Positions 20,401 through 59,690 of a stretch of DNA of 64,000 nucleotides are shown here, in pieces. The position numbers and the translations under genes were made by a program. The notes under the pieces were generated by a model, which was given only the letters and a program-made list of their open reading frames with translations, made no database searches and had not been told where the DNA came from. Within the stretch, counting starts at the first letter, position 1; every line of letters starts with the position of its first letter. Source of the stretch: a virus; the IMG/VR virus record IMGVR_UViG_3300033802_000281. One strand, given 5' to 3'.

Positions 20401-20478
20401 GTAACAACTCCTCTTTGTTAGTGGAGAAACATGGAAGATTAGCGGTAAAGAAATGATAACATGGATTGATAAGAAAAT

Positions 20479-20492
20479 CAAACATATGTTCG
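20479..20492. promoter_or_regulatory. putative LexA (SOS/Cheo) box CAAACATATGTTCG
   Basis: one mismatch to Bacillus consensus CGAACRNRYGTTCG. Confidence 0.7.
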
Positions 20493-28984: not shown

Positions 28985-29158
28985 ATGAAAGTAAGTGAGA
29001 GAACTTTAATTGACAAAGTGTTTGAAGGTATTCAGCAAAATGGATGGACAATTTTAAACGGAATGGGAAGGGGAAGCTACAACACATCCGCAACTAATAA
29101 AACTATGGTTGCTCCATTGGTAGAATACTTGAAGAGTAAGGGAATTGAAGTGAAGTGA
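28985..29158 (+). CDS. hypothetical protein
   Basis: SD AAGGAG; in track ORF 28967-29158. Confidence 0.55.
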   Translation: MKVSERTLIDKVFEGIQQNGWTILNGMGRGSYNTSATNKTMVAPLVEYLKSKGIEVK

Positions 29159-29181
29159 AATGGTACGAGATACTGTAAAAG

Positions 29182-29565
29182 TTAAGGATTTAATTTTCGG
29201 CCACTTCTTGTTGAACGAAATTCAACATTTCCTTGGTCGTCAACAGTAGCAAGCACAGGAGTAGCTCCGCGTTTTGTAGCTGTTTGATTGAGACGTTGCA
29301 AATCTTTACCGCTCAAGCTTGTAGGAGCGTTGCTACCAGACTTAACTTGAACTTCCCATTTTCTTGAGCCAAAGTTGGCATGAAGATCAGCAGCGCCTCT
29401 GCTTCCGGGTGATTGCTCGACGCTTGCGCCAGCACGGCGGAGAATATTTACTACTTTATTTTCCGCCTGAATTCCTTTTTTGTAGTTATTATTTTTAGGC
29501 AGTGTGTAAGCCCCCTTAACATAAGATGTTAAACACAATATCTCGTACCTATCTAATTTTAACAT
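29182..29565 (-). CDS. PD-(D/E)xK nuclease of Holliday-junction-resolvase (Hjc-like) type
   Basis: GIQAENKVVNIL...SPGSRGAADL...EVQVKS; opposite strand; best SD AAGGGGG precedes an in-frame CTG at 29502. Confidence 0.7.
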   Translation of the reverse strand: MLKLDRYEILCLTSYVKGAYTLPKNNNYKKGIQAENKVVNILRRAGASVEQSPGSRGAADLHANFGSRKWEVQVKSGSNAPTSLSGKDLQRLNQTATKRGATPVLATVDDQGNVEFRSTRSGRKLNP

Positions 29566-30434: not shown

Positions 30435-30501
30435 GGTTGCAAAATATGAAAATTATAGTATTATATTAATTAAGAATAAAAAAATAATTGAGGTGATATT
30501 A

Positions 30502-30882
30502 ATGGAGTACTTTCCGAAAAGAGGTGATATTTATCTTGTCGATTTGTCTGGTGCTGTAGGTAGCGAACAGGCAGGAATACGGCCATGTATTATTGTTAGT
30601 AACGATATTGGAAATCGATATTCACCGCTTGTTCATACAGTACCTATCACATCGAAAGTAAAAAAAGAAATGCCTTTTCATGTAAAAATAAATAATTTAA
30701 GAGAACCAAGTATCGCTCTATGTGAACAAGTAGGAAGAATTGATAAAATGCGTCTTATTGAATATATAGGAACTGTCGGAGAGCGAGAAATGCAAAAAAT
30801 TGATCGTGCTTTGATGGTTATTTATGGTCTTTTTAATTATATTCCTTCTGGCGAAGGCAAACGAGAAACTATATTTTGTTAA
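30502..30882 (+). CDS. mazF: MazF/PemK family endoribonuclease, no adjacent antitoxin recognised
   Basis: KRGDIYLVDL...GSEQAGIRP..IVSNDIGNRYSP...PITS...CEQ..IDK.RL, closely resembling B. subtilis NdoA/MazF; catalytic R and T positions kept. Confidence 0.9.
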   Translation: MEYFPKRGDIYLVDLSGAVGSEQAGIRPCIIVSNDIGNRYSPLVHTVPITSKVKKEMPFHVKINNLREPSIALCEQVGRIDKMRLIEYIGTVGEREMQKIDRALMVIYGLFNYIPSGEGKRETIFC

Positions 30883-31097: not shown

Positions 31098-31328
31098 TTA
31101 TAATTCTGTTGCTTCATGCCAATCGATTATTAGCTTATCGCATTTTAAATAATGAATTTTTCCATTTGTGGTATATAAGTCTGCATCAAAAAACGAAAAA
31201 TTTTTAGTGTTTAGAACAGAATTAGCGTATTGAATTGCATCGACCTCGTTTTTAGTAAATACATTAAGTTGAATAGGAAGTTTGACTATACCATGAACAA
31301 TAAAATGTTTCATTTCAGACATACACAT
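31098..31328 (-). CDS. small protein, paralog of 20167-20400, putatively LexA-regulated
   Basis: KHFIVHGIVKLPI...; SD GGAGGGAG on minus strand. Confidence 0.7.
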   Translation of the reverse strand: MCMSEMKHFIVHGIVKLPIQLNVFTKNEVDAIQYANSVLNTKNFSFFDADLYTTNGKIHYLKCDKLIIDWHEATEL

Positions 31329-31385: not shown

Positions 31386-31399
31386 CAAACATATGTTCG
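31386..31399. promoter_or_regulatory. putative LexA box CAAACATATGTTCG
   Basis: identical to the 20479 copy; one mismatch to consensus. Confidence 0.7.
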
Positions 31400-31421: not shown

Positions 31422-31450
31422 TTGACACACTTTATAAATGAATATATAAT
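31422..31450 (+). promoter_or_regulatory. consensus sigma-A promoter
   Basis: TTGACA-N17-TATAAT exact. Confidence 0.85.
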
Positions 31451-31472
31451 TTTAATAACGGAGGTGCTTTAA

Positions 31473-32021
31473 TTGATAACTTACAAACCTTTGCGTGATT
31501 ATTTGAGGTTAAAAAATATATCTTACTATAGGTTAAAAAAGGATGCGGATGTATCACAGACTGTTGTAGGGAAAATTTTGAATGATGAATATATAAATCT
31601 TCAAAGTATAGCGAAAATTTGCTTATATTTAAAAATCCCTATTGAAAAAGCGGTACAGTTAAAGTTTCAAAATATAAAAACTTTCGACAATGAGTGTTTA
31701 CAAGAAGTAGATAACCTACGTGAAGAGATGAAGAAACTAAAACAGGAACTTTGGAAATATCAAAATATGAATAGAGAAAGAAGAAAGAGAGGAAAGACAT
31801 ATTATATTAAAGATTTAAAAAAATATAGGTTAGATAAAAATTTATCATTAAGTGATATAGCAAAGCGGTTTGACCTTACTACACAAATGATTTATATTTG
31901 GGAGACGTATAAATCGGGCGTTTCTGAAAAGTATATTTCTGATTTAAAGGATCTTTTAAACATCAAAGATGAAGACATTGTTGAATGGAAAATTGCAAAA
32001 GAAAATAATTTGACAACTTAA
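31473..32021 (+). CDS. tandem Cro/C1-type HTH regulator
   Basis: N-term ITYKPL..L....ISYY.L.....VS..VV.KI..DE.I.L.SI..IC..L; second HTH LSLSDIAKRFDLTTQMIYIWE. Confidence 0.8.
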   Translation: MITYKPLRDYLRLKNISYYRLKKDADVSQTVVGKILNDEYINLQSIAKICLYLKIPIEKAVQLKFQNIKTFDNECLQEVDNLREEMKKLKQELWKYQNMNRERRKRGKTYYIKDLKKYRLDKNLSLSDIAKRFDLTTQMIYIWETYKSGVSEKYISDLKDLLNIKDEDIVEWKIAKENNLTT

Positions 32022-32150
32022 TGAATATTGAATATTTATATTTTAAATATACATAAATAGTACTAGAGCATTATGTGCTATTTGTGTATATTTTTTTTAA
32101 TATGTGTTATAATGCTTTTTAAAAGGCAATAACACAAAGGAGGAACATTT

Positions 32151-33473
32151 ATGAAGTCCCAAGTTAGCGAAGTATTGAATGATGTATTTGCTGAAATTGC
32201 AAAAAATCCTCATGTACAACGTAAAATAACTGAATTTCTTTATGAAAATCACAAAATCCCTCATGGTACGTTTCAAGAAATCGTGGTTAACAATGAACGA
32301 TTCTTTAATCTTTCTGAAATCGAGCAAGTTGTTGTGGTAAATGCGATTTACCAAATAACAAATTTTGACCAAATTGAACCAACAAAATTTTATACAAATA
32401 AAGAAATCAAAGCAACAGAAAATTATATATATGGTGCAGAAGATCGAATCGAGTTGCCTTACACATTTGAAGGTGTACTCAAAGCAGGGCCGTATGATTA
32501 CCTTACTGTTGTGAGTTACAAAGATTTGGCAAAGTTATGGAATAGCGGGATTTTAACCTACAACTTTCAAACTCAACGTCTTTCAAAGAAAAAAATCAAT
32601 TCTAAGGGCGAAGTTGTCGAACGTCCAGACGTTAATAAGAAGAGCGTAAAAAATATTGTTCGTTTGATGCGTGAAGGAAAATATAGTCCAAGTACTATAT
32701 TGTTGAATGTACTTGTGGATGGAAAAAGTCATATTGAGTATGAAGATGGGAACTTGACTATTGGAGAAGGTAGCACGGTAAACTTGATCGATGGTATGCA
32801 CCGTATTCAGGCGATTTTAGAGGTTATTGAGGAAGAACCTGAGTTTGAAGGTTATATGAATGTTGATATCAAACACTATCCTATCGAAAAAGCACAACAA
32901 CTTTTGGCTATAACGAACACCGTAAACAAATTCGATAAGACACTCGTTAAGCATTATATGGCCGAAAGTTACGGTGCCCAAATCGCTAAAGATTTGATGA
33001 ACATTCCAGAGTTGAAAAACAGAATTTCGATCAAAACAGCATTGGATAAAAAACTTAAGCTGTTGTTGACTAACTTTGCGATTTTGTCAGAATCGATTGA
33101 AGATATTTTTGAACCGAAAAATGCTAAAGACAGATTTGATCATTTTGAGGTTTTGAAAAAGTTTTATAGCTACTTTGTGACTGCATATCAAGAAAAACTT
33201 CTTGATAATAAAGACGAAGTATCGAAAACTAGCTGGTTCCCTCATCATAACCTGCACGTAGGGTTTATCGTAATTGCCAAAAAGCTTTACGATAAATACG
33301 GAAAAGATTTTCCGGTTGATGAGATTGTCCGCATCATTGACAATATTGACTTCAATAAAGAAACTTCGTATCTGACTGAAATAATGAGCGGACAAGGAAA
33401 AGTAAATAGCAATCGAGTAAAGAAGGAAATTAAAAAATACTTCGAAGAGAAAGTTGATGAATTACTAAAATAA
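32151..33473 (+). CDS. DndB-like (DGQHR-type) protein, SPbeta YopQ/SroE-like
   Basis: LIDGMHR motif, ParB-like fold; directly upstream of an integrase-fold gene as in SPbeta yopQ-yopR. Confidence 0.75.
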   Translation: MKSQVSEVLNDVFAEIAKNPHVQRKITEFLYENHKIPHGTFQEIVVNNERFFNLSEIEQVVVVNAIYQITNFDQIEPTKFYTNKEIKATENYIYGAEDRIELPYTFEGVLKAGPYDYLTVVSYKDLAKLWNSGILTYNFQTQRLSKKKINSKGEVVERPDVNKKSVKNIVRLMREGKYSPSTILLNVLVDGKSHIEYEDGNLTIGEGSTVNLIDGMHRIQAILEVIEEEPEFEGYMNVDIKHYPIEKAQQLLAITNTVNKFDKTLVKHYMAESYGAQIAKDLMNIPELKNRISIKTALDKKLKLLLTNFAILSESIEDIFEPKNAKDRFDHFEVLKKFYSYFVTAYQEKLLDNKDEVSKTSWFPHHNLHVGFIVIAKKLYDKYGKDFPVDEIVRIIDNIDFNKETSYLTEIMSGQGKVNSNRVKKEIKKYFEEKVDELLK

Positions 33474-33494
33474 TGAAGATTGGAGGGATTCAGA

Positions 33495-34481
33495 ATGTCA
33501 AATGTAATATACGAAGATAAATTTTATAACGAAGATATCAAGCTGAAGTTTATGGAGAATTACTCAGAAGGAACAAAAAAGATTTTAGAACGACTATTTA
33601 AAATTTCATATATACTTGAAGCTGAATATGAAAAAGATTTGTATAGTTTTAACCGAGAAGAATTAAGACGACTTGGGTATGAATATCGTCCAAAATCGAC
33701 CTATTCATCAAGAGTCTACATTGCGTGGCTCCAAAAATATATTGATTGGGCAATAGAAGAAGGATATCATAACGGCATTAACCCGTTAGAATTGGTATCC
33801 ACTGAATGGAAAGAGCAGTTTGTTGTTAAAGTGAAAAAATATTGGACGAAGTTTGAGATTGACAGCATATTTACCAAGCTTGAAAACTATCAAGATATTG
33901 TAATTGCCAGTCTCTTGTTTAATGGTGTTCGAGGTAAAGGGAATTCAGAAATTTTGAATTTAAAAAAACAGGATATTGATGCCGACAACAATCGTCTTCA
34001 TGTTGTCGATGAAGATGGAGGTGAAAGATGGGTATATGTTGACGATTCATGCATTCAATATTGCCTAAAGGCCTATAATGAAACTGAATATGAAAAGAAG
34101 AATGGAGATCCAGATCCAGAAATTAGGTCGCGGATGGGACAATTGGTTGAAAATGAATATATCGTTCGGTCGGTAAAGACTAGAACGACTCATTTTGATA
34201 AAGCCGAAAAAAATATTGTTCATCGAAGACTAAGTGCTATTGCAAAGCTGATAGACGAACCGAATTTTACACCGATCAACCTTTATCACTCTGGAATGTT
34301 GTATTTAGCAAGCGAATTGTATAAGACTACAGGTAAACTAGAAAAAGAAGAGTATGATTTAATTTTTAGTAAAGAAAGATATTATGAACCTTCAGAACAA
34401 ACAAGATATCAAATTAAGACAGAGTTTTTAAACGAAGAGGTGCTTTTTGAATTGTATCCAGAATTAAAAAAAATGAAGTAA
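33495..34481 (+). CDS. integrase-fold phage repressor, SPbeta YopR/SroF/MrpR-like
   Basis: SAM-like N-term (DLYSFNREEL), FNGVRG box I; box II reads INLYHSGM, lacking HxxR, so probably not catalytic. Confidence 0.75.
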   Translation: MSNVIYEDKFYNEDIKLKFMENYSEGTKKILERLFKISYILEAEYEKDLYSFNREELRRLGYEYRPKSTYSSRVYIAWLQKYIDWAIEEGYHNGINPLELVSTEWKEQFVVKVKKYWTKFEIDSIFTKLENYQDIVIASLLFNGVRGKGNSEILNLKKQDIDADNNRLHVVDEDGGERWVYVDDSCIQYCLKAYNETEYEKKNGDPDPEIRSRMGQLVENEYIVRSVKTRTTHFDKAEKNIVHRRLSAIAKLIDEPNFTPINLYHSGMLYLASELYKTTGKLEKEEYDLIFSKERYYEPSEQTRYQIKTEFLNEEVLFELYPELKKMK

Positions 34482-34520
34482 CAAAAAGGCATTGGATAAT
34501 AAATTCCAATGCCTTTTTGT
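34482..34520 (+). terminator. rho-independent terminator
   Basis: AAAAAGGCATTGGA/TCCAATGCCTTTTT. Confidence 0.85.
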
Positions 34521-34544
34521 TGAAAAATAAATTATGATAAATAC

Positions 34545-34573
34545 TTGAAAAACGGATGTAAAAGTGATATATT
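34545..34573 (+). promoter_or_regulatory. sigma-A promoter of agr-like cassette
   Basis: TTGAAA-N17-TATATT with extended -10 TG. Confidence 0.65.
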
Positions 34574-34588
34574 AAATACTGTGATAGT

Positions 34589-35134
34589 TTGAATTGGAGT
34601 GTGATCTTTATAAAAACAATAGATTACTTAGCAAATGAAATGCACAAGGCAAATCCTAAATATTTAAGAGAAGAATACAAATATGGATTGGATATTATAT
34701 TTAACACGTTAGGTACAGTAGTTTTAGTCATTGCGATTTCGTTGATTTTAGGACTTGTGAAAGAAGCGGTTATTGTACTCATTAGTTTCGGTGTGATAAG
34801 ATTTTTTAGCGGTGGCAAACATCTACATACTTCAATTGCCTGTATGTTAACTACAGCATTACTTATTTATTTAATTATATTTATTCATTTAAACATATAT
34901 TTCTCAGATGCTATGATTTACACACTAAACATCATTTCTTTAATTATTTTTTCCATATTTGCACCTTCTAATATTGAACAAGCTATAAAAATTAAGATTG
35001 ATTATAAGATTATGCTAAAAATTATTTCTATTGCTTTTGTTTTAATAAGTGTTGTTATTCATTCAGAACTATTGACATTAACAATTTTTGTTCAAGCATT
35101 AACAACCATTGAAATAAGGAATGGTGTGCATTGA
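34589..35134 (+). CDS. agrB: accessory gene regulator B (AgrB) family peptide-processing membrane protein
   Basis: KYGLDII...FGVIRFFSGGKHLHTSIAC (R-x-x-S-G-G-x-H...C catalytic motif), FAPS; multiple TM helices. Confidence 0.9.
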   Translation: MNWSVIFIKTIDYLANEMHKANPKYLREEYKYGLDIIFNTLGTVVLVIAISLILGLVKEAVIVLISFGVIRFFSGGKHLHTSIACMLTTALLIYLIIFIHLNIYFSDAMIYTLNIISLIIFSIFAPSNIEQAIKIKIDYKIMLKIISIAFVLISVVIHSELLTLTIFVQALTTIEIRNGVH

Positions 35135-35829
35135 CCTATTTTTCGTTCATTTTATTTTCAATTCTAGAGCAATTTTCATTATTACTCTTTGGTTTCTCTA
35201 TTTTTAGAATTCGTCTTTCCTTTAATAATTATTTAAAAATGATACTGTTAACTATTATTACATCTACAGCATCAATATTTATGACGTATTATTCTTTTTA
35301 TGAGGGAGCAAGGCCCATTGTTATTTTTGTTATAACTTTGTTGCTGATCAATAAAGTAAAAAAGATTGGTTTGAAAACTTCGTTAATTATTGTTCCTATT
35401 GCTTATATTATATTTATTGCAGTACAGACACTATTGTTTATTATAATGAATAAATATGATTTAATCCCCTTAGACATAGTGCCTTTTAGTTATGAGGGTT
35501 ATCTGTTACAGTTTATTACTTCAATATTTTTTATTATATTATCTATTGTACTTCGCTATTTTTTAAAAGAAGGATTCATGTTTGATCCAGAAAGCAATGG
35601 TAATAAAAAATTGAGATATTCAAACAAATTATTTCTAATTGTACTAACGCTTGCATTTGTTATAATCTCCGGTCTTTATTATGAAGCTATGCATTCAAGT
35701 TTAGCATATATTGTTTATGCAATCTCTATTATATCACTTCTGTTTTCAATCGGTCTGTTTTATCTATCTGTTAAAAGAGATCAAGAGGAAGCAGAATTAT
35801 ATTTTTCGACACTAAAAAAAAGGAGGTGA
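35131..35829 (+). CDS. polytopic membrane protein resembling an AgrC sensor domain without the kinase
   Basis: about 7 hydrophobic segments; no H-box or HATPase; located between agrB and agrD. Confidence 0.7.
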   Translation: MTYFSFILFSILEQFSLLLFGFSIFRIRLSFNNYLKMILLTIITSTASIFMTYYSFYEGARPIVIFVITLLLINKVKKIGLKTSLIIVPIAYIIFIAVQTLLFIIMNKYDLIPLDIVPFSYEGYLLQFITSIFFIILSIVLRYFLKEGFMFDPESNGNKKLRYSNKLFLIVLTLAFVIISGLYYEAMHSSLAYIVYAISIISLLFSIGLFYLSVKRDQEEAELYFSTLKKRR

Positions 35830-35837
35830 CAAACAGC

Positions 35838-35960
35838 ATGAAGAAAGTTATTAAAGGTTTCTCTGCTATTGTTGGATTGCTTTCTGTAGTTTTTGCAACA
35901 ACAGCATCTACTTTTTGGGTTTACAAACCAGTTGCGCCAAAATCATTACTAAATAAGTGA
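35838..35960 (+). CDS. agrD: AgrD-type cyclic lactone autoinducer peptide precursor (40 aa)
   Basis: translated by hand: MKKVIKGFSAIVGLLSVVFATTASTFWVYKPVAPKSLLNK; SD AGGAGGTG; amphipathic leader, S-x4 ring, KPxxPKSL tail. Confidence 0.85.
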   Translation: MKKVIKGFSAIVGLLSVVFATTASTFWVYKPVAPKSLLNK

Positions 35961-36024
35961 TTGTCAAATAGGGGGAGTATGGTTAATACTCCCCATCAAA
36001 AACAACTCATTGGAGGGTACAAAC

Positions 36025-36474
36025 TTGAATGAAGACTTTATTCGTGTTCGTAACTCCAAAGGAGGATTTGAATTACAAAATATTCGTGATATATTATCGA
36101 TAGATTATCGTCCAGATTTCTCCATTGTTAGAACTAGAGACGGGGAATATGAATTACCTATATCTAAAAAAGGTTTGATCGAAACTATAATCGATCAATT
36201 TGATTTCATTCAGAGTGATAGAGATTTGTTTGTAAATATAAAATTAGTAAAAAAATATCACTCTACATTAAATTATGTTTTCTTTGATAACATTGACTCG
36301 GTTAAAGAGGTAAAGGAAAAGAATTTGCCTTATATTTTTCTTCATCCACGATATGTTAAGCATTTTAGATCGTACTTCGGGATCGAAAATGATTTAGCAT
36401 ATAAGAAAATACACAGAAAAAACAAAATTAGCTATATACGGAATGTGATTGATGAAATATTAAACGCCGACTAA
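36025..36474 (+). CDS. stand-alone LytTR DNA-binding domain protein
   Basis: FIQSDRDLFVNIKLVKKY LytTR pattern; no receiver domain; TTG start with SD GGAGGG. Confidence 0.7.
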   Translation: MNEDFIRVRNSKGGFELQNIRDILSIDYRPDFSIVRTRDGEYELPISKKGLIETIIDQFDFIQSDRDLFVNIKLVKKYHSTLNYVFFDNIDSVKEVKEKNLPYIFLHPRYVKHFRSYFGIENDLAYKKIHRKNKISYIRNVIDEILNAD

Positions 36475-36494
36475 TCAGTTGGCGTTGTTTTTAT
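36462..36494 (+). terminator. rho-independent terminator ending agr cassette
   Basis: AACGCCGACT/AGTTGGCGTT stem followed by T tract. Confidence 0.7.
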
Positions 36495-36889
36495 TTGAAA
36501 AACAATTAATCTTAACATAAAACATGATATTTTGTCAAGCGCGATTTTTTTAAAAAAAGTGTTTGATTAATATTTTTTGATAATGGTAATATATGCTTAC
36601 TAAATGTGGAAGGTGGGGCTGAATATGAGTTCTATTGAAGAAATTATAATAAGGAGGGTTCATGATCAAGAAGATGAACTAACTATTGATTTAGATTTTT
36701 ATATTGAGCTTTGTAAGAAAATTATAAAGAAAAGACAATAGTATATGAAATACTATTGTCTCATCAATTCTCACAATTAAATAATACAGCCAATATAGTC
36801 AATTGAAAACATCAGTTCAAAAAGTTTAATGGTTATTGACATTTTATAGTCGGTTAGGTTATAATACATCACTTCCAAGGAGAGTCAAC

Positions 36890-37536: not shown

Positions 37537-38185
37537 GGGATGCGGTGGCGGAAAAGGTTAAAGGTGATAGCATTGGCAGTTAAAAAAGAACATATTTTCA
37601 TTGATGGTAAAGAAATGAAAGAATGCTCTAGATGCAAGATAATTAAAGAGTTATCCATGTTTAGGAAAGATAAAGGAAAATGGGATGGATTATATCCATA
37701 TTGCAAAGAATGTGCTTCTGCGAAGGATAAGGAAGTTTATAGAAAAAACCCTTCAAAGAAAAAGCTATTGTAAAACAATATATGATACGAACAGGGAAAA
37801 TAAGAGAATACAAACCTTATAATCCAAAGTATTATTCTTCTGTGAAATCGAGATTAAAAAAGAGATCGAGGCATCTAAAGAGAAGGGTTTTAAAGAAAAA
37901 TGCTGATCTGGAATTTGTTGTTTCACACGAAACGATCAAAAAAATTATAGATAAGTACAACGGCAAATGTGCATATTGCAACAAAGACTGTTCTGATAAT
38001 TTTCACATAGATCATAAAGTACCGCTTTCAAAAGGCGGTGGAAACGAATTTAAAAATTTAGCCCTATCTTGTCCAAGATGCAATTTTAGTAAGAAAGACA
38101 AAACAGATGTAGAATTTGTAGGTCGTAAAGTATAATGGTAAACTTGAGACGACCATGCAAGGTGCAAATCCCTGCCCGCATCCCA
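37537..38185 (+). ncRNA. tRNA-like scaffold split around an HNH gene
   Basis: 5' GGGATGCGG-TG-GCGGAAAAGG; 3' GGTCGT/ACGACC stem, GCAAGG-TGCAAAT-CCCTGC T arm, CCGCATCCCA; 9 bp end-to-end complementarity. Confidence 0.6.
37573..38135 (+). CDS. HNH homing endonuclease split by a -1 frameshift (37573-37773 + 37782-38135)
   Basis: N-term KECSRC...CKEC zinc finger; C-term CAYC...HIDHKVPLSKGGGN...NLALSCPRCNFSK. Confidence 0.85.
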
Positions 38186-46497: not shown

Positions 46498-46869
46498 TCG
46501 TATTAAATGGAAAATTGATTTGGCTATGAAAATATTTATACGCTGCCTAAAACAGCATTAATACTATAGAATGGAGGTAAGAGGTGTTTGGATTTGGATA
46601 TTATTTATAAGACTAATATAGAAAATCCGTCTGATCGTGTTTTAGAGATTGCTGAAGCCTTCGGTGTAGGTATTGACGAATCACATAAACACGTAATTGT
46701 TGAAAATCTTACGATTCCGCAATTCGATATACTTTATCTGACTGGAATGAGTGGTAGATAAAGAATTAGAGGAATGATCTAGTGTAGTAAAATAGTATAG
46801 GTATTGGCTATAAGAAGTAAATAATATAAGTATTGTAGATATAAAAAATAAAAAATGGAGAGTGATTGA

Positions 46870-47661
46870 TTGAGTAAGAAACTACTTGGAAGCCTTCAAC
46901 TAAACCGTATTTATCAAATGGATTGTTTAGAAGGTATGAAACTGATTCCTGATAAAAGTATTGATATGATTTTGTGCGATTTACCTTATGGCACAAGTGC
47001 TTGTAGTTGGGATACTGTAATCCCATTTGAACCACTTTGGGAGCAATACAAACGCATCATTAAAGATTTTGGAGCAATCGTTCTTACAGCAAGTCAGCCC
47101 TTCACGACATTATTGATTAACAGTAATTTCGAGTGGTTTAAGTATTGCTGGGTTTGGGAGAAATCAGTTTGTGGCGATGTTTTTAATGCTAAAAATAAAC
47201 CTTTAAAGAAGCACGAAGATATTGTTGTGTTCTCTAACGGAACAACCGCAAATGGCTCCAAAAAGAAAATGCCCTACTTCCCACAAGGGCTTGTTGAAAT
47301 CAATAAAACCGTAAAAAACATTGAAACGACAAGAGCATTTTTCGCTCCAAGACCTTCACATAAAGAATCATATACTCAAAAATTCACCAACTATCCTACA
47401 AGCATTCTTAAATATGATAATGATAAAGGGTATCACCCAACACAAAAGCTTGTTGCACTTTTTGAATACCTTATTCGTACATATACAAAAGAAAATGAAA
47501 TTGTCCTCGATAACTGTATGGGTTCAGGGACTACCGCCGTTGCCGCAACATTAACAAAGCGTAACTGGATTGGCTTTGAGACGGAGGCTAAATACATAGA
47601 AATAGCCAACAAACGTCTGGATCAGATTCAACTTGAAGATGATTTAGCAAAGTACGATTAA
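46870..47661 (+). CDS. N6/N4 DNA methyltransferase (beta class), paralog 1
   Basis: CDLPYG, HPTQK, LDNCMGSGTT. Confidence 0.95.
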   Translation: MSKKLLGSLQLNRIYQMDCLEGMKLIPDKSIDMILCDLPYGTSACSWDTVIPFEPLWEQYKRIIKDFGAIVLTASQPFTTLLINSNFEWFKYCWVWEKSVCGDVFNAKNKPLKKHEDIVVFSNGTTANGSKKKMPYFPQGLVEINKTVKNIETTRAFFAPRPSHKESYTQKFTNYPTSILKYDNDKGYHPTQKLVALFEYLIRTYTKENEIVLDNCMGSGTTAVAATLTKRNWIGFETEAKYIEIANKRLDQIQLEDDLAKYD

Positions 47662-47853: not shown

Positions 47854-49170
47854 AAATCCACCACAAGAAAGCCCCTGCCTTTAGGCATGGGGATGAATTG
47901 TGGTGGGATAAGTTGGTAAAAACTTGATTTTCATAACTAAAATATGATATATTTATTACAAGAAAAAAAGAACGGAGGTGACATTTGTGCAATCTATCAC
48001 CGTAAAAATAAGATTTTTTCCTGATAACCCAAAGGTCATTAAAGAAGCATCACAAGAATACATCAATATTGTCAATAGACTATCACAACAGGCAGTTGAA
48101 AATCAATCGTTTCCTAAAATCACAACAAAAGATATTTCAACTTTTCTTCCATCTGCTGTTTGCAATCAAGCGATCAGAGACACAAAATCTGTATATACCA
48201 AATATAAAAAGACCAAAAAAATATCTGTTCTCAAGAAGCCAGTATATTATATTAATAATCAAAATTATACCATCCTTGATAATACAATTGCATTTCCTAT
48301 ATCTATTAATGGAAAAACGAAAAAGACATTTTTTAAAGCCATTCCAACAGATAGAGATATGGAATTAATCAAAAAATCCAAACTTGGTCTTATGCGTATT
48401 GTTGAAAAATCAGGAAAATGGTATGCTCAAGTGTCCATTCAAATTCCAGAAGAAAAAACGAATGGCGAAAATATCATGGGTATTGATCTTGGCTTAAAAG
48501 TTCCTGCTGTTGCTGTAACATCAACAGGTAAAACCAGATTCTTTGGCAATGGTAGACAAATCAAATATGTTAGACGCAAATATCAGTCTCACAGAAGGAA
48601 ATTAGGTAAACTTAAAAAACTTTCGGCTATCAAGAAACTAAGCGATAAAGAAAGCAGATGGATAAAAGACCAAAATCATAAAATCAGTAGACAGATTGTG
48701 AATTATGCGATTCAAGAAAATGTATCTCTAATCAAATTGGAAAGATTAGAAAATATCCGTAAGACGACAAGAACAAGTCGTAAAAACGCAAAGAATCTGC
48801 ATAACTGGTCGTTCTATCAACTGCAACAGTTTATCACATATAAGGTTAACTTGGCAGGAATCAAAGTTATAGAAGTTAATCCTGCATACACAAGTCAAAT
48901 ATGCCCTTGTTGTGGTAAACGAAATAAAGCAGATGATAGACAATATGAATGTTCATGCGGATTCAAAACACACAGAGATCGGGTTGGAGCGATTAATATT
49001 ATGCGTCAACCTGTGGCAGATGGTAACAGTCTGCCAGCCTAAGAACCTATATGGTCTGTCTTAGGATGGGCTGATGGCACAGCCCCTAACTTGGAGATTG
49101 CATGAAGCAGAAATGCATGAGTGCGTGAATCATCCAAGAATCCCCCGGATTTATCCGTGGGGAGTGTCAA
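47854..49170 (+). mobile_element. IS200/IS605-family element (IS608-like ends, tnpB only)
   Basis: TTAC target at left; LE AAAG-CCCCTGCCTTTAGGCATGGGG; RE GAAT-CCCCCGGATTTATCCGTGGGG-AGTGTCAA; no tnpA. Confidence 0.92.
47987..49042 (+). CDS. tnpB: TnpB RNA-guided endonuclease
   Basis: RuvC GIDLG / LERLEN / HRDRVGAINI; CPCC...CSCG zinc finger. Confidence 0.95.
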   Translation: MQSITVKIRFFPDNPKVIKEASQEYINIVNRLSQQAVENQSFPKITTKDISTFLPSAVCNQAIRDTKSVYTKYKKTKKISVLKKPVYYINNQNYTILDNTIAFPISINGKTKKTFFKAIPTDRDMELIKKSKLGLMRIVEKSGKWYAQVSIQIPEEKTNGENIMGIDLGLKVPAVAVTSTGKTRFFGNGRQIKYVRRKYQSHRRKLGKLKKLSAIKKLSDKESRWIKDQNHKISRQIVNYAIQENVSLIKLERLENIRKTTRTSRKNAKNLHNWSFYQLQQFITYKVNLAGIKVIEVNPAYTSQICPCCGKRNKADDRQYECSCGFKTHRDRVGAINIMRQPVADGNSLPA

Positions 49171-53894: not shown

Positions 53895-54129
53895 ATGCTC
53901 AATGAAATGCTAATTGGCTAAATATTATTTCTGGGTTCGTCTAGACAAACTTTCAGAATATGTAGAAGTGCCAGATGAATTATTAGAATGCTTAGATGAA
54001 AAGCAAAAGGAAAAAGTTCTGTTCCAAGAACATAATAAGTGGTGCAGAAAGCAGTATTGCGGTGATTGGGAATTAGTAAAATCACGATAAAATACGGGTT
54101 TCATGGTAATAAGAAAGGAGATAAAGTGT

Positions 54130-54912
54130 TTGGGAAAAGAATTGTTGGGAAGCCTAGAGTTAAATAGGATTTATCAAATGGACTGTTTGGAAGGTATGAA
54201 ACTGATTCCCAATAAATCAATTGATATGATTTTATGTGATTTACCTTATGGTACAACTGCTTGTAAATGGGATACCATTGTTTCATTAGATAAGCTCTGG
54301 GAACAATACGAAAGGATAATTAAAGATAATGGTGCAATAGTTCTTACTGCTCAAACACCTTTTGATAAAGTCTTAGGAGCAAGTAATTTAAAATTATTGC
54401 GCTATGAGTGGTTATGGATTAAAGAACAAGGAACAGGAAATCTAAATGCTAATAAAATGCCATTAAAGCAACACGAAAATATTCTCGTATTTTATAAACA
54501 ACTGCCAACTTACAATCCACAAATGACTGAAGGAAAGCCATATAAAATTAAACGTAATAAAAATAACAATGAAATTTTTGGGAAAACTGGAACGAGAGAT
54601 GGTTATATAACTGAAAACGAAGGAATGAGATATCCCACAAGTACGCTTTATTTTAGAAGGGAATTGAAACCGAGATATCATCCGACACAAAAACCAGTAG
54701 CATTGTTTGAATACTTGATTAAAACATATACAAATCAATGCGAAATAGTTTTAGATAATTGTATGGGTTCAGGCACTACAGCGGTAGCAGCATTAAAGTG
54801 TAATCGTAAATTCATAGGATTTGAAACTGAACCCAAATACATAGAAATTGCAAATAAAAGAATTGAAAGCATGTATAATGAATTAGAAGATCAGAAATTA
54901 AATATCCTATAA
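54130..54912 (+). CDS. N6/N4 DNA methyltransferase (beta class), paralog 2
   Basis: CDLPYG, HPTQKP, LDNCMGSGTT; TTG start with SD AAGGAG. Confidence 0.95.
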   Translation: MGKELLGSLELNRIYQMDCLEGMKLIPNKSIDMILCDLPYGTTACKWDTIVSLDKLWEQYERIIKDNGAIVLTAQTPFDKVLGASNLKLLRYEWLWIKEQGTGNLNANKMPLKQHENILVFYKQLPTYNPQMTEGKPYKIKRNKNNNEIFGKTGTRDGYITENEGMRYPTSTLYFRRELKPRYHPTQKPVALFEYLIKTYTNQCEIVLDNCMGSGTTAVAALKCNRKFIGFETEPKYIEIANKRIESMYNELEDQKLNIL

Positions 54913-59655: not shown

Positions 59656-59690
59656 AATGAGAATTTTATTGAATTATGGAGGGTAGTTTA

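Follow-up and report, generated by a model that had tools for sequence, protein, structure and literature searches.

A kinase-free agr-type peptide cassette beside the SroE/SroF repressor genes of an SPbeta-type phage, a candidate alternative to arbitrium

Arbitrium is the best-studied means by which phages talk to one another about lysis and lysogeny, and it relies on a linear peptide that is taken up by the cell and sensed by a receptor in the cytoplasm. The sro operon of phi3T and SPbeta is linked to a peptide signal (bioRxiv 10.1101/2025.11.27.690993). The window analyzed here, a 64,000-nucleotide stretch of viral DNA (IMG/VR record IMGVR_UViG_3300033802_000281), carries homologs of the sroE and sroF (yopQ and yopR) genes followed by a set of genes of agr type. 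This raises the question of whether a peptide of a quite different kind might act at the same switch. A first-pass annotation of the DNA had suggested that the agr-type genes form an alternative to arbitrium. Our favored reading, to which we give a probability of roughly 0.5, is that they form a self-contained, phosphorelay-free agr-type peptide operon of an SPbeta-type temperate phage that feeds the lysis-lysogeny switch.

The cassette and the repressor operon

Positions 31422 to 36494 hold seven genes, all on the plus strand, in two operons (Table 1). The first operon runs from its promoter through a gene with two helix-turn-helix (HTH) domains, a DndB-like homolog of SroE/YopQ, and an MrpR/SroF integrase-fold repressor gene to a terminator. 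The second has its own promoter, followed by agrB, the gene for a seven-helix membrane protein, agrD, lytTR, and a terminator. The first-pass annotation had described the HTH, DndB-like, and integrase-fold genes, the terminator, and the separate promoter leading into agrB, and all of these were found in place, the genes with profile matches.

AgrB retains both catalytic-type residues, His78 and Cys85 (GGKH78LHTSIAC85), in the usual GG.H......C spacing. In Staphylococcus aureus AgrB, the His77/Cys84 pair has the catalytic role. The 40-amino-acid AgrD that had been picked out at first pass scores above the family cut-off, and its predicted five-residue ring, S-T-F-W-V, is followed by YKPVAPKSLL. 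A serine five residues before the end of the hydrophobic ring is kept in eight cassettes, that of the window and seven related ones, and the tail after the ring takes the form x-K/S/Q-P/Q-x-A/V-P-x-S/E-L. The rings read STFWV (in the window and in a related phage contig, L001), SAWWV, SALWI, SVLFV, SAWFI, and SAGLS. Since AgrB and AgrD are both intact, AgrD is predicted, by analogy, to yield a five-residue autoinducing peptide closed as a serine lactone.

The product of the gene between agrB and agrD had been described as a membrane protein with about seven transmembrane segments and no kinase domain. An AlphaFold2 (AF2) model built from a 32-sequence alignment indeed had seven helices, with a predicted local distance difference test score (pLDDT) of 93. 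Scans of the family libraries gave no match to the protein, including none to HATPase, and it lacks the dimerization/histidine phosphotransfer (DHp) domain and ATPase core that characterize AgrC. A phmmer search of 1.84 billion representatives returned 38 relatives, all between 109 and 293 amino acids long. We then applied a profile of the family to a survey of 201 genomes from one bacterial order, that of prophage L013 (probably Paenibacillales). The family was present in 140 of these genomes, most of the frames being 215 to 260 amino acids in length. The same profile also matched the N terminus of several frames of 456 to 477 amino acids (residues ~10 to 220, covering profile positions 2 to 220 of 224, with E values of 1e-30 to 1e-39). 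The C-terminal half of these longer proteins is HATPase_c or HATPase_c_5, and their genes neighbor those for AgrB and a receiver-domain regulator. Judged from the profile alignment, the phage membrane protein is the sensor half of agr-type histidine kinases, ending where the kinase would begin, just past helix 7. The motif K-R-D-x-E-E is conserved after that helix. In the sensor tree, the kinase-fused sensors were nested within the kinase-less family (97/94). The sensor hidden Markov model (HMM) matched none of eight HATPase_c_5 kinase loci in genome G001, so not every kinase of that ATPase type has the sensor.

Three chromosomal agr loci of the survey (L043, L044, and L045, in genomes G013, G043, and G029) contain one to three tandem histidine kinases with the phage-type sensor module. 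These kinases adjoin AgrB and a receiver-domain regulator of ~200 amino acids in which no LytTR domain was detected.

The last gene of the cassette encodes a LytTR protein, which had been read as receiver-less. Its own Pfam match is a low one (Table 1). It aligns, however, with its eight cassette partners, five of which match LytTR themselves (best E value, 8e-10), and 99 of its 100 language-model neighbors are LytTR clusters. No Response_reg match was found, so the receiver of AgrA is missing. Of the two possible starts, TTG at 36025 is likelier than 36010, since it is preceded by the ribosome-binding site GGAGGG, agrees with the 149-amino-acid gene call P0004, and aligns with the start in L001. 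The single-sequence AF2 model of the protein was poor (pLDDT of 53) and was not used.

We also co-folded the sensor with the LytTR protein. The pair scored 0.39 against 0.01 for the best control, with at least 90% of contacts agreeing between runs and a partner pLDDT of at least 76. Of 80 solved complexes, 58 reached the mark that it passed, as did 2 of 110 mismatched pairs; at scores of 0.60 or less, the passing set comprised only 7 of the 80 solved complexes and both of the mismatches, and the result was graded as weak support for contact between the two proteins.

With neither a kinase domain nor a receiver, no phosphorelay is possible. The cassette resembles agrBDCA of S. aureus in the His/Cys pair of AgrB, the five-residue ring and proline-containing tail of AgrD, the multihelix sensor, and the LytTR output. 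It differs in that the sensor has no DHp/ATPase domain and the regulator has no receiver, in having serine as the ring nucleophile (giving a lactone), in its gene order (agrB-sensor-agrD-lytTR), and in being phage borne and located beside a repressor. The comparison that had been drawn with kinase-free LytTR regulatory systems (LRS) is apt: HdrRM and BrsRM of Streptococcus mutans likewise pair a receiver-less LytTR regulator with a membrane protein and use no kinase (PMC6193735). The membrane inhibitors of LRS come from other protein families, and no peptide ligand is known for them, whereas the phage partner is an agr-type sensor whose operon makes its own peptide. By sequence, then, the cassette is agr-like at its signal-making end and LRS-like at its output end.

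In the repressor operon, the DndB-like protein aligned over its full length with YopQ/SroE of phi3T (29% identity; E value, 7e-52). For the MrpR-like protein, a PDB search returned MrpR/YopR/SroF entries as the sole matches (9RD5, 8A0A, and 8BJV; E values of 1e-33 to 1e-37), namely, SPbeta MrpR/YopR and the phi3T SroF-DNA complex. It is 51 to 53% identical to the prophage MrpR proteins of genomes G177 and G141. The SroE-like gene lies directly upstream of the SroF-like gene, as in the SPbeta sro module. The six-gene sroA-F operon with its YopP-like integrase is not present, the stretch from promoter (31422) to terminator (34480) containing just three genes; a YopP-like gene is present in phi3T and in phage Perkons.

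Recurrence beside MrpR and the search for AimR

The synteny of repressor and agr cassette, which had been put forward as a check, proved to recur. The order DndB-MrpR-AgrB-sensor-AgrD-LytTR was found in L001 (a 55-kb contig whose sensor is 68% identical to that of the window) and in a second phage contig of 61 kb (L016), and the same order was found in prophages of five genomes (G001, G141, G177, G143, and G093). The bacterial contigs bearing these prophages range from 34 kb (G141) to 2.9 Mb; that of G001, labeled "Paenibacillaceae bacterium," is 467 kb long.

We scored every MrpR locus of the survey with profiles built in this analysis. MrpR_C_cat was present in 20 of the 201 genomes, and a cassette was directly adjacent at 7 of the 18 full-length MrpR loci, in three gene arrangements. 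Five of the loci had DndB-MrpR-AgrB-sensor-LytTR, one (in G064) had DndB-MrpR-sensor-AgrB-LytTR, and one (in G013) had sensor-AgrB-LytTR ~1 kb upstream of MrpR. With roughly two to four cassettes per genome of ~6 Mb, we roughly estimate that chance adjacency would be expected at about 0.05 loci. The AgrB-first cassettes formed one deep group (94/89) in the sensor tree, and all 8 of its 11 members with known upstream context were linked to MrpR. The G064 and G013 cassettes fell elsewhere, the latter as sister to the kinase-fused sensors. Since the MrpR-adjacent cassettes occupy separate places in the tree, adjacency to the repressor arose at least three times.

An identical cassette sitting as an ordinary host locus at a prophage boundary had been named as the case that would speak against the arbitrium alternative, and no such case was encountered. 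Host-chromosomal cassettes do exist: one lies between hfq and hflX/glnA in Brevibacillus reuszeri, and G001 has two chromosomal copies besides its prophage copy. All of these have the sensor gene first, and the AgrB-first, MrpR-linked cassettes grouped apart from them in the tree.

Cassettes also occur in phages without MrpR. The 44-kb Paenibacillus larvae phages Harrison and Paisley carry one of the same family, consisting of a membrane protein, AgrB, a 42-amino-acid open reading frame (ORF), and a 118-amino-acid protein, with no kinase, as in the window. Their membrane protein is a member of the sensor family described above (HMM E value, 8.7e-27), and the 118-amino-acid protein aligns with the LytTR family. 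These cassettes differ from that of the window in having the sensor gene first, in lying in a moron-like region, and in a small peptide that lacks the conserved serine ring position. The agr3 locus of Clostridioides difficile phage phiCDHM1 is likewise a phage-borne set of agrB, agrD, and a sensor, but its sensor is a true AgrC kinase, and it has no regulator and no link to an MrpR-type repressor (PMC3901668).

Neither blastn with the region nor tblastn with the sensor gave any match among 50,697 phage records, and scans of viral contigs with the sensor and with the LytTR protein found no relatives. Full-text literature searches on phage agr and kinase-free agr returned no description of the kinase-free cassette or of its link to MrpR; one review remarks loosely, without a specific source, on agr homologs in "SPbeta-like phages."

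AimR was sought with profile PF22871, which recovered AimR of phi3T at 1e-116 and gave positive results with both the phi3T record and a Bacillus subtilis control. No aimR had been seen in the window at first pass, and the profile detected none among window ORFs of at least 266 amino acids. Neither was AimR found in the whole genomes of G001, G141, and G177, which hold related prophages with MrpR and agr, and no protein in the 201 genomes exceeded the Pfam cut-off, the weak partial matches being to 592-amino-acid proteins encoded far from MrpR loci. In phages Sundance, KKP_3916, E3, and Perkons, MrpR is present, and neither AimR nor AgrB was found. As far as can be told from these sequences, MrpR-type phages come with arbitrium (the B. 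subtilis phages), with a kinase-free agr cassette (the present group), or with neither in detectable form.

Phage Perkons has, ~0.8 kb downstream of its MrpR homolog, a gene for a 395-amino-acid protein followed by a 52-amino-acid ORF (ORF69-70; L006, 7789-9211). The larger protein had no match to AimR or to any other Pfam family. The two may represent a further pair of receptor and peptide at the equivalent position.

The window shares with the arbitrium and sroA-F region of SPbeta and phi3T a peptide-signal module beside the SroE/SroF (YopQ/YopR) genes of a large temperate siphovirus, with an SOS-type box and a MazF connection nearby. It differs in that no AimR was found, in the predicted signal (a cyclic lactone sensed outside the cell rather than a linear hexapeptide imported to a cytoplasmic tetratricopeptide repeat receptor), in the position of the cassette (downstream of sroF, whereas arbitrium lies upstream), and in the repressor operon, which has no YopP-like integrase. 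The arbitrium alternative suggested at first pass thus has strong comparative support in the share of MrpR loci that carry a cassette and in the outcome of the AimR survey.

A possible peptide input to the SroF switch

Under our favored reading, the peptide would build up as more cells become infected or lysogenic and would bind the membrane sensor from outside the cell. In LRS, the membrane protein is proposed to hold the regulator (PMC6193735), and by the same logic the phage sensor would hold or release the LytTR protein through direct contact. LytTR, once freed or sequestered, would then alter how a phage target is transcribed, and that target would bias the lysis-lysogeny switch built on SroF. 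The cassette would in this way fill the role that AimR and AimP have in SPbeta and phi3T. More broadly, and tentatively, since we rate this somewhat below an even chance, the SPbeta-type phages of this order may possess a second, independently recruited form of phage-to-phage communication, in which a serine-lactone peptide acts through a kinase-less sensor gating a bare LytTR protein on the SroF/MrpR switch, captured beside the repressor at least three times.

The SroE/SroF module is here joined repeatedly to a quite different predicted chemistry, a secreted cyclic lactone with a membrane sensor and no phosphorylation, in an order in which no AimR was found. If the cassette controls the decision, temperate phages acquired peptide communication more than once, each time at the same switch. 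The cassette would also be a tractable example of agr-type sensor signaling without a kinase, with relevance to the chromosomal copies of the family.

Several points weigh against this proposal. Peptide control of lysis-lysogeny, rather than of host behavior, is a function that we infer from sequence. The AimR search of this phage covered the 64-kb window, and ~84 kb of a 148-kb contig on which proteins identical to those of the window were found lies outside it. With the sensor model, Foldseek reached a template-modeling (TM) score of no more than 0.43 by query against AFDB Swiss-Prot, ESM Atlas, and PDB, and VIA-align gave generic helical matches only (Z of 8.8 or less); because the structure searches returned no known fold, the sensor homology rests on sequence profiles and not on fold. 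LRS operons have the regulator first and direct repeats upstream of the −35 element, and the phage cassette differs in both respects. No intergenic region in either the window or L001 contained LytTR-type direct repeats (8 of 9 matches, 18- to 24-bp spacing); just 23 bp separate the repressor-operon terminator from the agr −35 element, and no LRS-style repeats were found immediately upstream of it. Finally, in four metatranscriptomes from different studies, three runs had no contig over the agrB/sensor stretch (34678-35680) and the fourth had hardly any; expression cannot be ranked from contigs, and gaps in them prove little.

In these four metatranscriptomes, contigs at least 99% identical to the window tile positions 31465 to 34490 and stop at 34440 to 34490, that is, at the repressor-operon terminator. 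One run also had a contig over agrD and the start of lytTR (35829-36225). Contig depth was 70 to 190 over positions 29066 to 29542 in all four, compared with 2 to 8 over the repressor operon, and coverage this uneven argues against plain DNA carry-over. The pattern is consistent with a lysogen in which the repressor operon is expressed and the agr operon is held at a low level.

The rival that survives best holds that the cassette is a lysogenic-conversion or interference module, whose peptide and regulator either manipulate the kinase-free agr circuits of the host, through cross-activation or jamming, or control host genes, and which sits beside the repressor only since that region is expressed in lysogens. 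Homologous cassettes, from one to many per genome, are common in the same order (140 of the 201 genomes, with the two chromosomal copies of G001 as an example), so that interference with the host is equally feasible, and this too counts against control of the phage switch. The P. larvae phages Harrison and Paisley carry their related cassette near a toxin gene in the moron-like region, and the phiCDHM1 locus has been discussed in similar terms (PMC3901668). Expression context alone, however, hardly explains why adjacency to MrpR should appear in three arrangements and at no fewer than three places in the tree. The AgrB-first cassettes linked to MrpR constitute a separate deep lineage and do not resemble the copies of their hosts, and RNA contigs from presumed lysogens show the repressor operon and hardly any of the agr operon. 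On this evidence, we regard the interference explanation as less likely than our favored reading.

A second rival is quite improbable. The membrane protein could be no receptor at all but a protein that confers immunity or one that helps to mature or export the peptide, with LytTR acting constitutively and without relation to peptide sensing. Its gene does lie between agrB and agrD, with a start that overlaps the agrB stop, and in S. aureus a separate membrane protease, MroQ, aids maturation of the autoinducing peptide. Against this, the HMM of the family aligns, over its full length, with the sensor portion of the kinases found at agr loci, with the E values given above, and the co-fold with the LytTR protein weakly passes its controls. 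A reading of the membrane protein as a CPBP/MroQ-like protease was rejected, there being no match to CPBP/Abi or to any other peptidase family and no conserved histidine.

That the cassette is hitchhiking or decaying host DNA with no current function is very improbable, since nothing specific speaks for it beyond a LytTR match below the Pfam gathering score, whereas four frames stay open, catalytic and ring residues are kept across relatives at only 20 to 70% identity, the promoter is kept, and the terminators are kept through compensatory changes.

Regulatory signals and neighboring genes

The features of the two operons are collected in Table 1. In the double-HTH protein, the second HTH occupies residues 114 to 164. 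The −35 element and ribosome-binding site of the repressor-operon promoter are kept in L001. Both terminator stems differ in sequence between the window and L001 and yet pair in each, through compensatory changes. The ratio of agrD to lytTR may be set by the hairpin that separates them, acting either as a partial terminator or to stabilize the RNA.

Table 1. Features of the repressor and agr operons
Feature	Position	Strand	Evidence or remark
SOS-box-like palindrome, CAAACATATGTTCG	31386..31399	.	Between divergent 76-aa gene and repressor-operon promoter; kept in L001
Sigma-A-type promoter, repressor operon (TTGACA-17-TATAAT)	31422..31450	+	12/12 matches
Double-HTH (Cro/C1-type) protein, gene 1 of repressor operon	31473..32021	+	HTH_26 5e-13; HTH_3 4.5e-11; phrog_3 "transcriptional repressor"
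DndB-like protein, SroE/YopQ homolog	32151..33473	+	PF14072 5.6e-15; phrog_5732 3e-82
MrpR/SroF/YopR-type integrase-fold repressor	33480..34481	+	PF22822 3e-24; PF22823 3e-21
Bidirectional intrinsic terminator, end of repressor operon	34480..34521	.	17-bp stem
agr-operon promoter (TTGAAA-17-TG-TATATT, extended −10)	34545..34573	+	Elements kept in L001
AgrB peptidase	34589..35134	+	PF04647 7.7e-24
Seven-helix membrane protein, 232 aa, kinase-less agr-type sensor module	35131..35829	+	Start overlaps agrB stop
AgrD propeptide, 40 aa	35838..35960	+	TIGR04223 32.8 bits, cut-off 19
GC-rich hairpin between agrD and lytTR, without U tract	35972..35994	+	−20.2 kcal/mol, z −4.28; stem kept in L001
Stand-alone LytTR-type DNA-binding protein, 149-154 aa	36025..36474	+	PF04397 7.8e-4, under gathering score; alternative start 36010
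Intrinsic terminator, end of agr operon	36463..36486	+	

The SOS-box-like palindrome upstream of the repressor operon has a near twin at 20478-20492. The window holds eight SOS-box-like matches where 1.9 would be expected, a number reached in none of 100 shuffles. We infer from its sequence that the palindrome may be a LexA site. Behind it, on the minus strand, lies the divergent 76-amino-acid gene (31098-31328). By analogy, this gene is a candidate for a LexA-controlled antirepressor like Sar of phi3T and SPbeta, though it is differently placed. Upstream of the repressor operon, at a distance of ~0.6 kb, is a gene for a PemK/MazF-type toxin (30493-30882; PF02452, 4.7e-31). It has no evident antitoxin partner and is kept in L001. 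In phi3T and SPbeta, the small LexA-controlled antirepressor Sar and MazF participate in the arbitrium-gated decision (bioRxiv 10.1101/2025.11.27.690993; PMC10769878), and phi3T arbitrium works through the host MazF (PMC10769878). We treat the SOS-box/Sar and MazF parallels as leads, suggested by analogy, rather than as tests.

Beyond the agr terminator, a 26-nucleotide block, CGATTTTTTTAAAAAAAGTGTTTGAT (36541-36567), is identical in L001 amid a diverged spacer and is unique in the window. It lies immediately 5′ of the first promoter past that terminator and may be an operator.

Under the deep RNA coverage described above lies an ORF on the minus strand, one of few such in the window (29182-29565), which encodes a 127-amino-acid Hjc/Mrr-like nuclease. 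It may be a defense or exclusion gene expressed in the lysogen.

The window as a whole has the look of a large tailed phage, with nearly all ORFs on one strand and six tRNAs. Its DNA was also found in phyllosphere, compost, bioreactor, and mixed-culture metagenomes. Other genes encode several DNA methylases, an AAA_24 protein, TnpB (47978-49042), and an HNH endonuclease. Three of the methylase genes, of N6/N4 type, are paralogs with DNA identities of 66 to 83% (46855-47656, 54115-54901, and 59676-60459). In run X16, one RNA contig joins position 37558 to position 38154, omitting 595 nucleotides that contain the HNH endonuclease ORF (37782-38135), which is consistent with an intron carrying a homing endonuclease.

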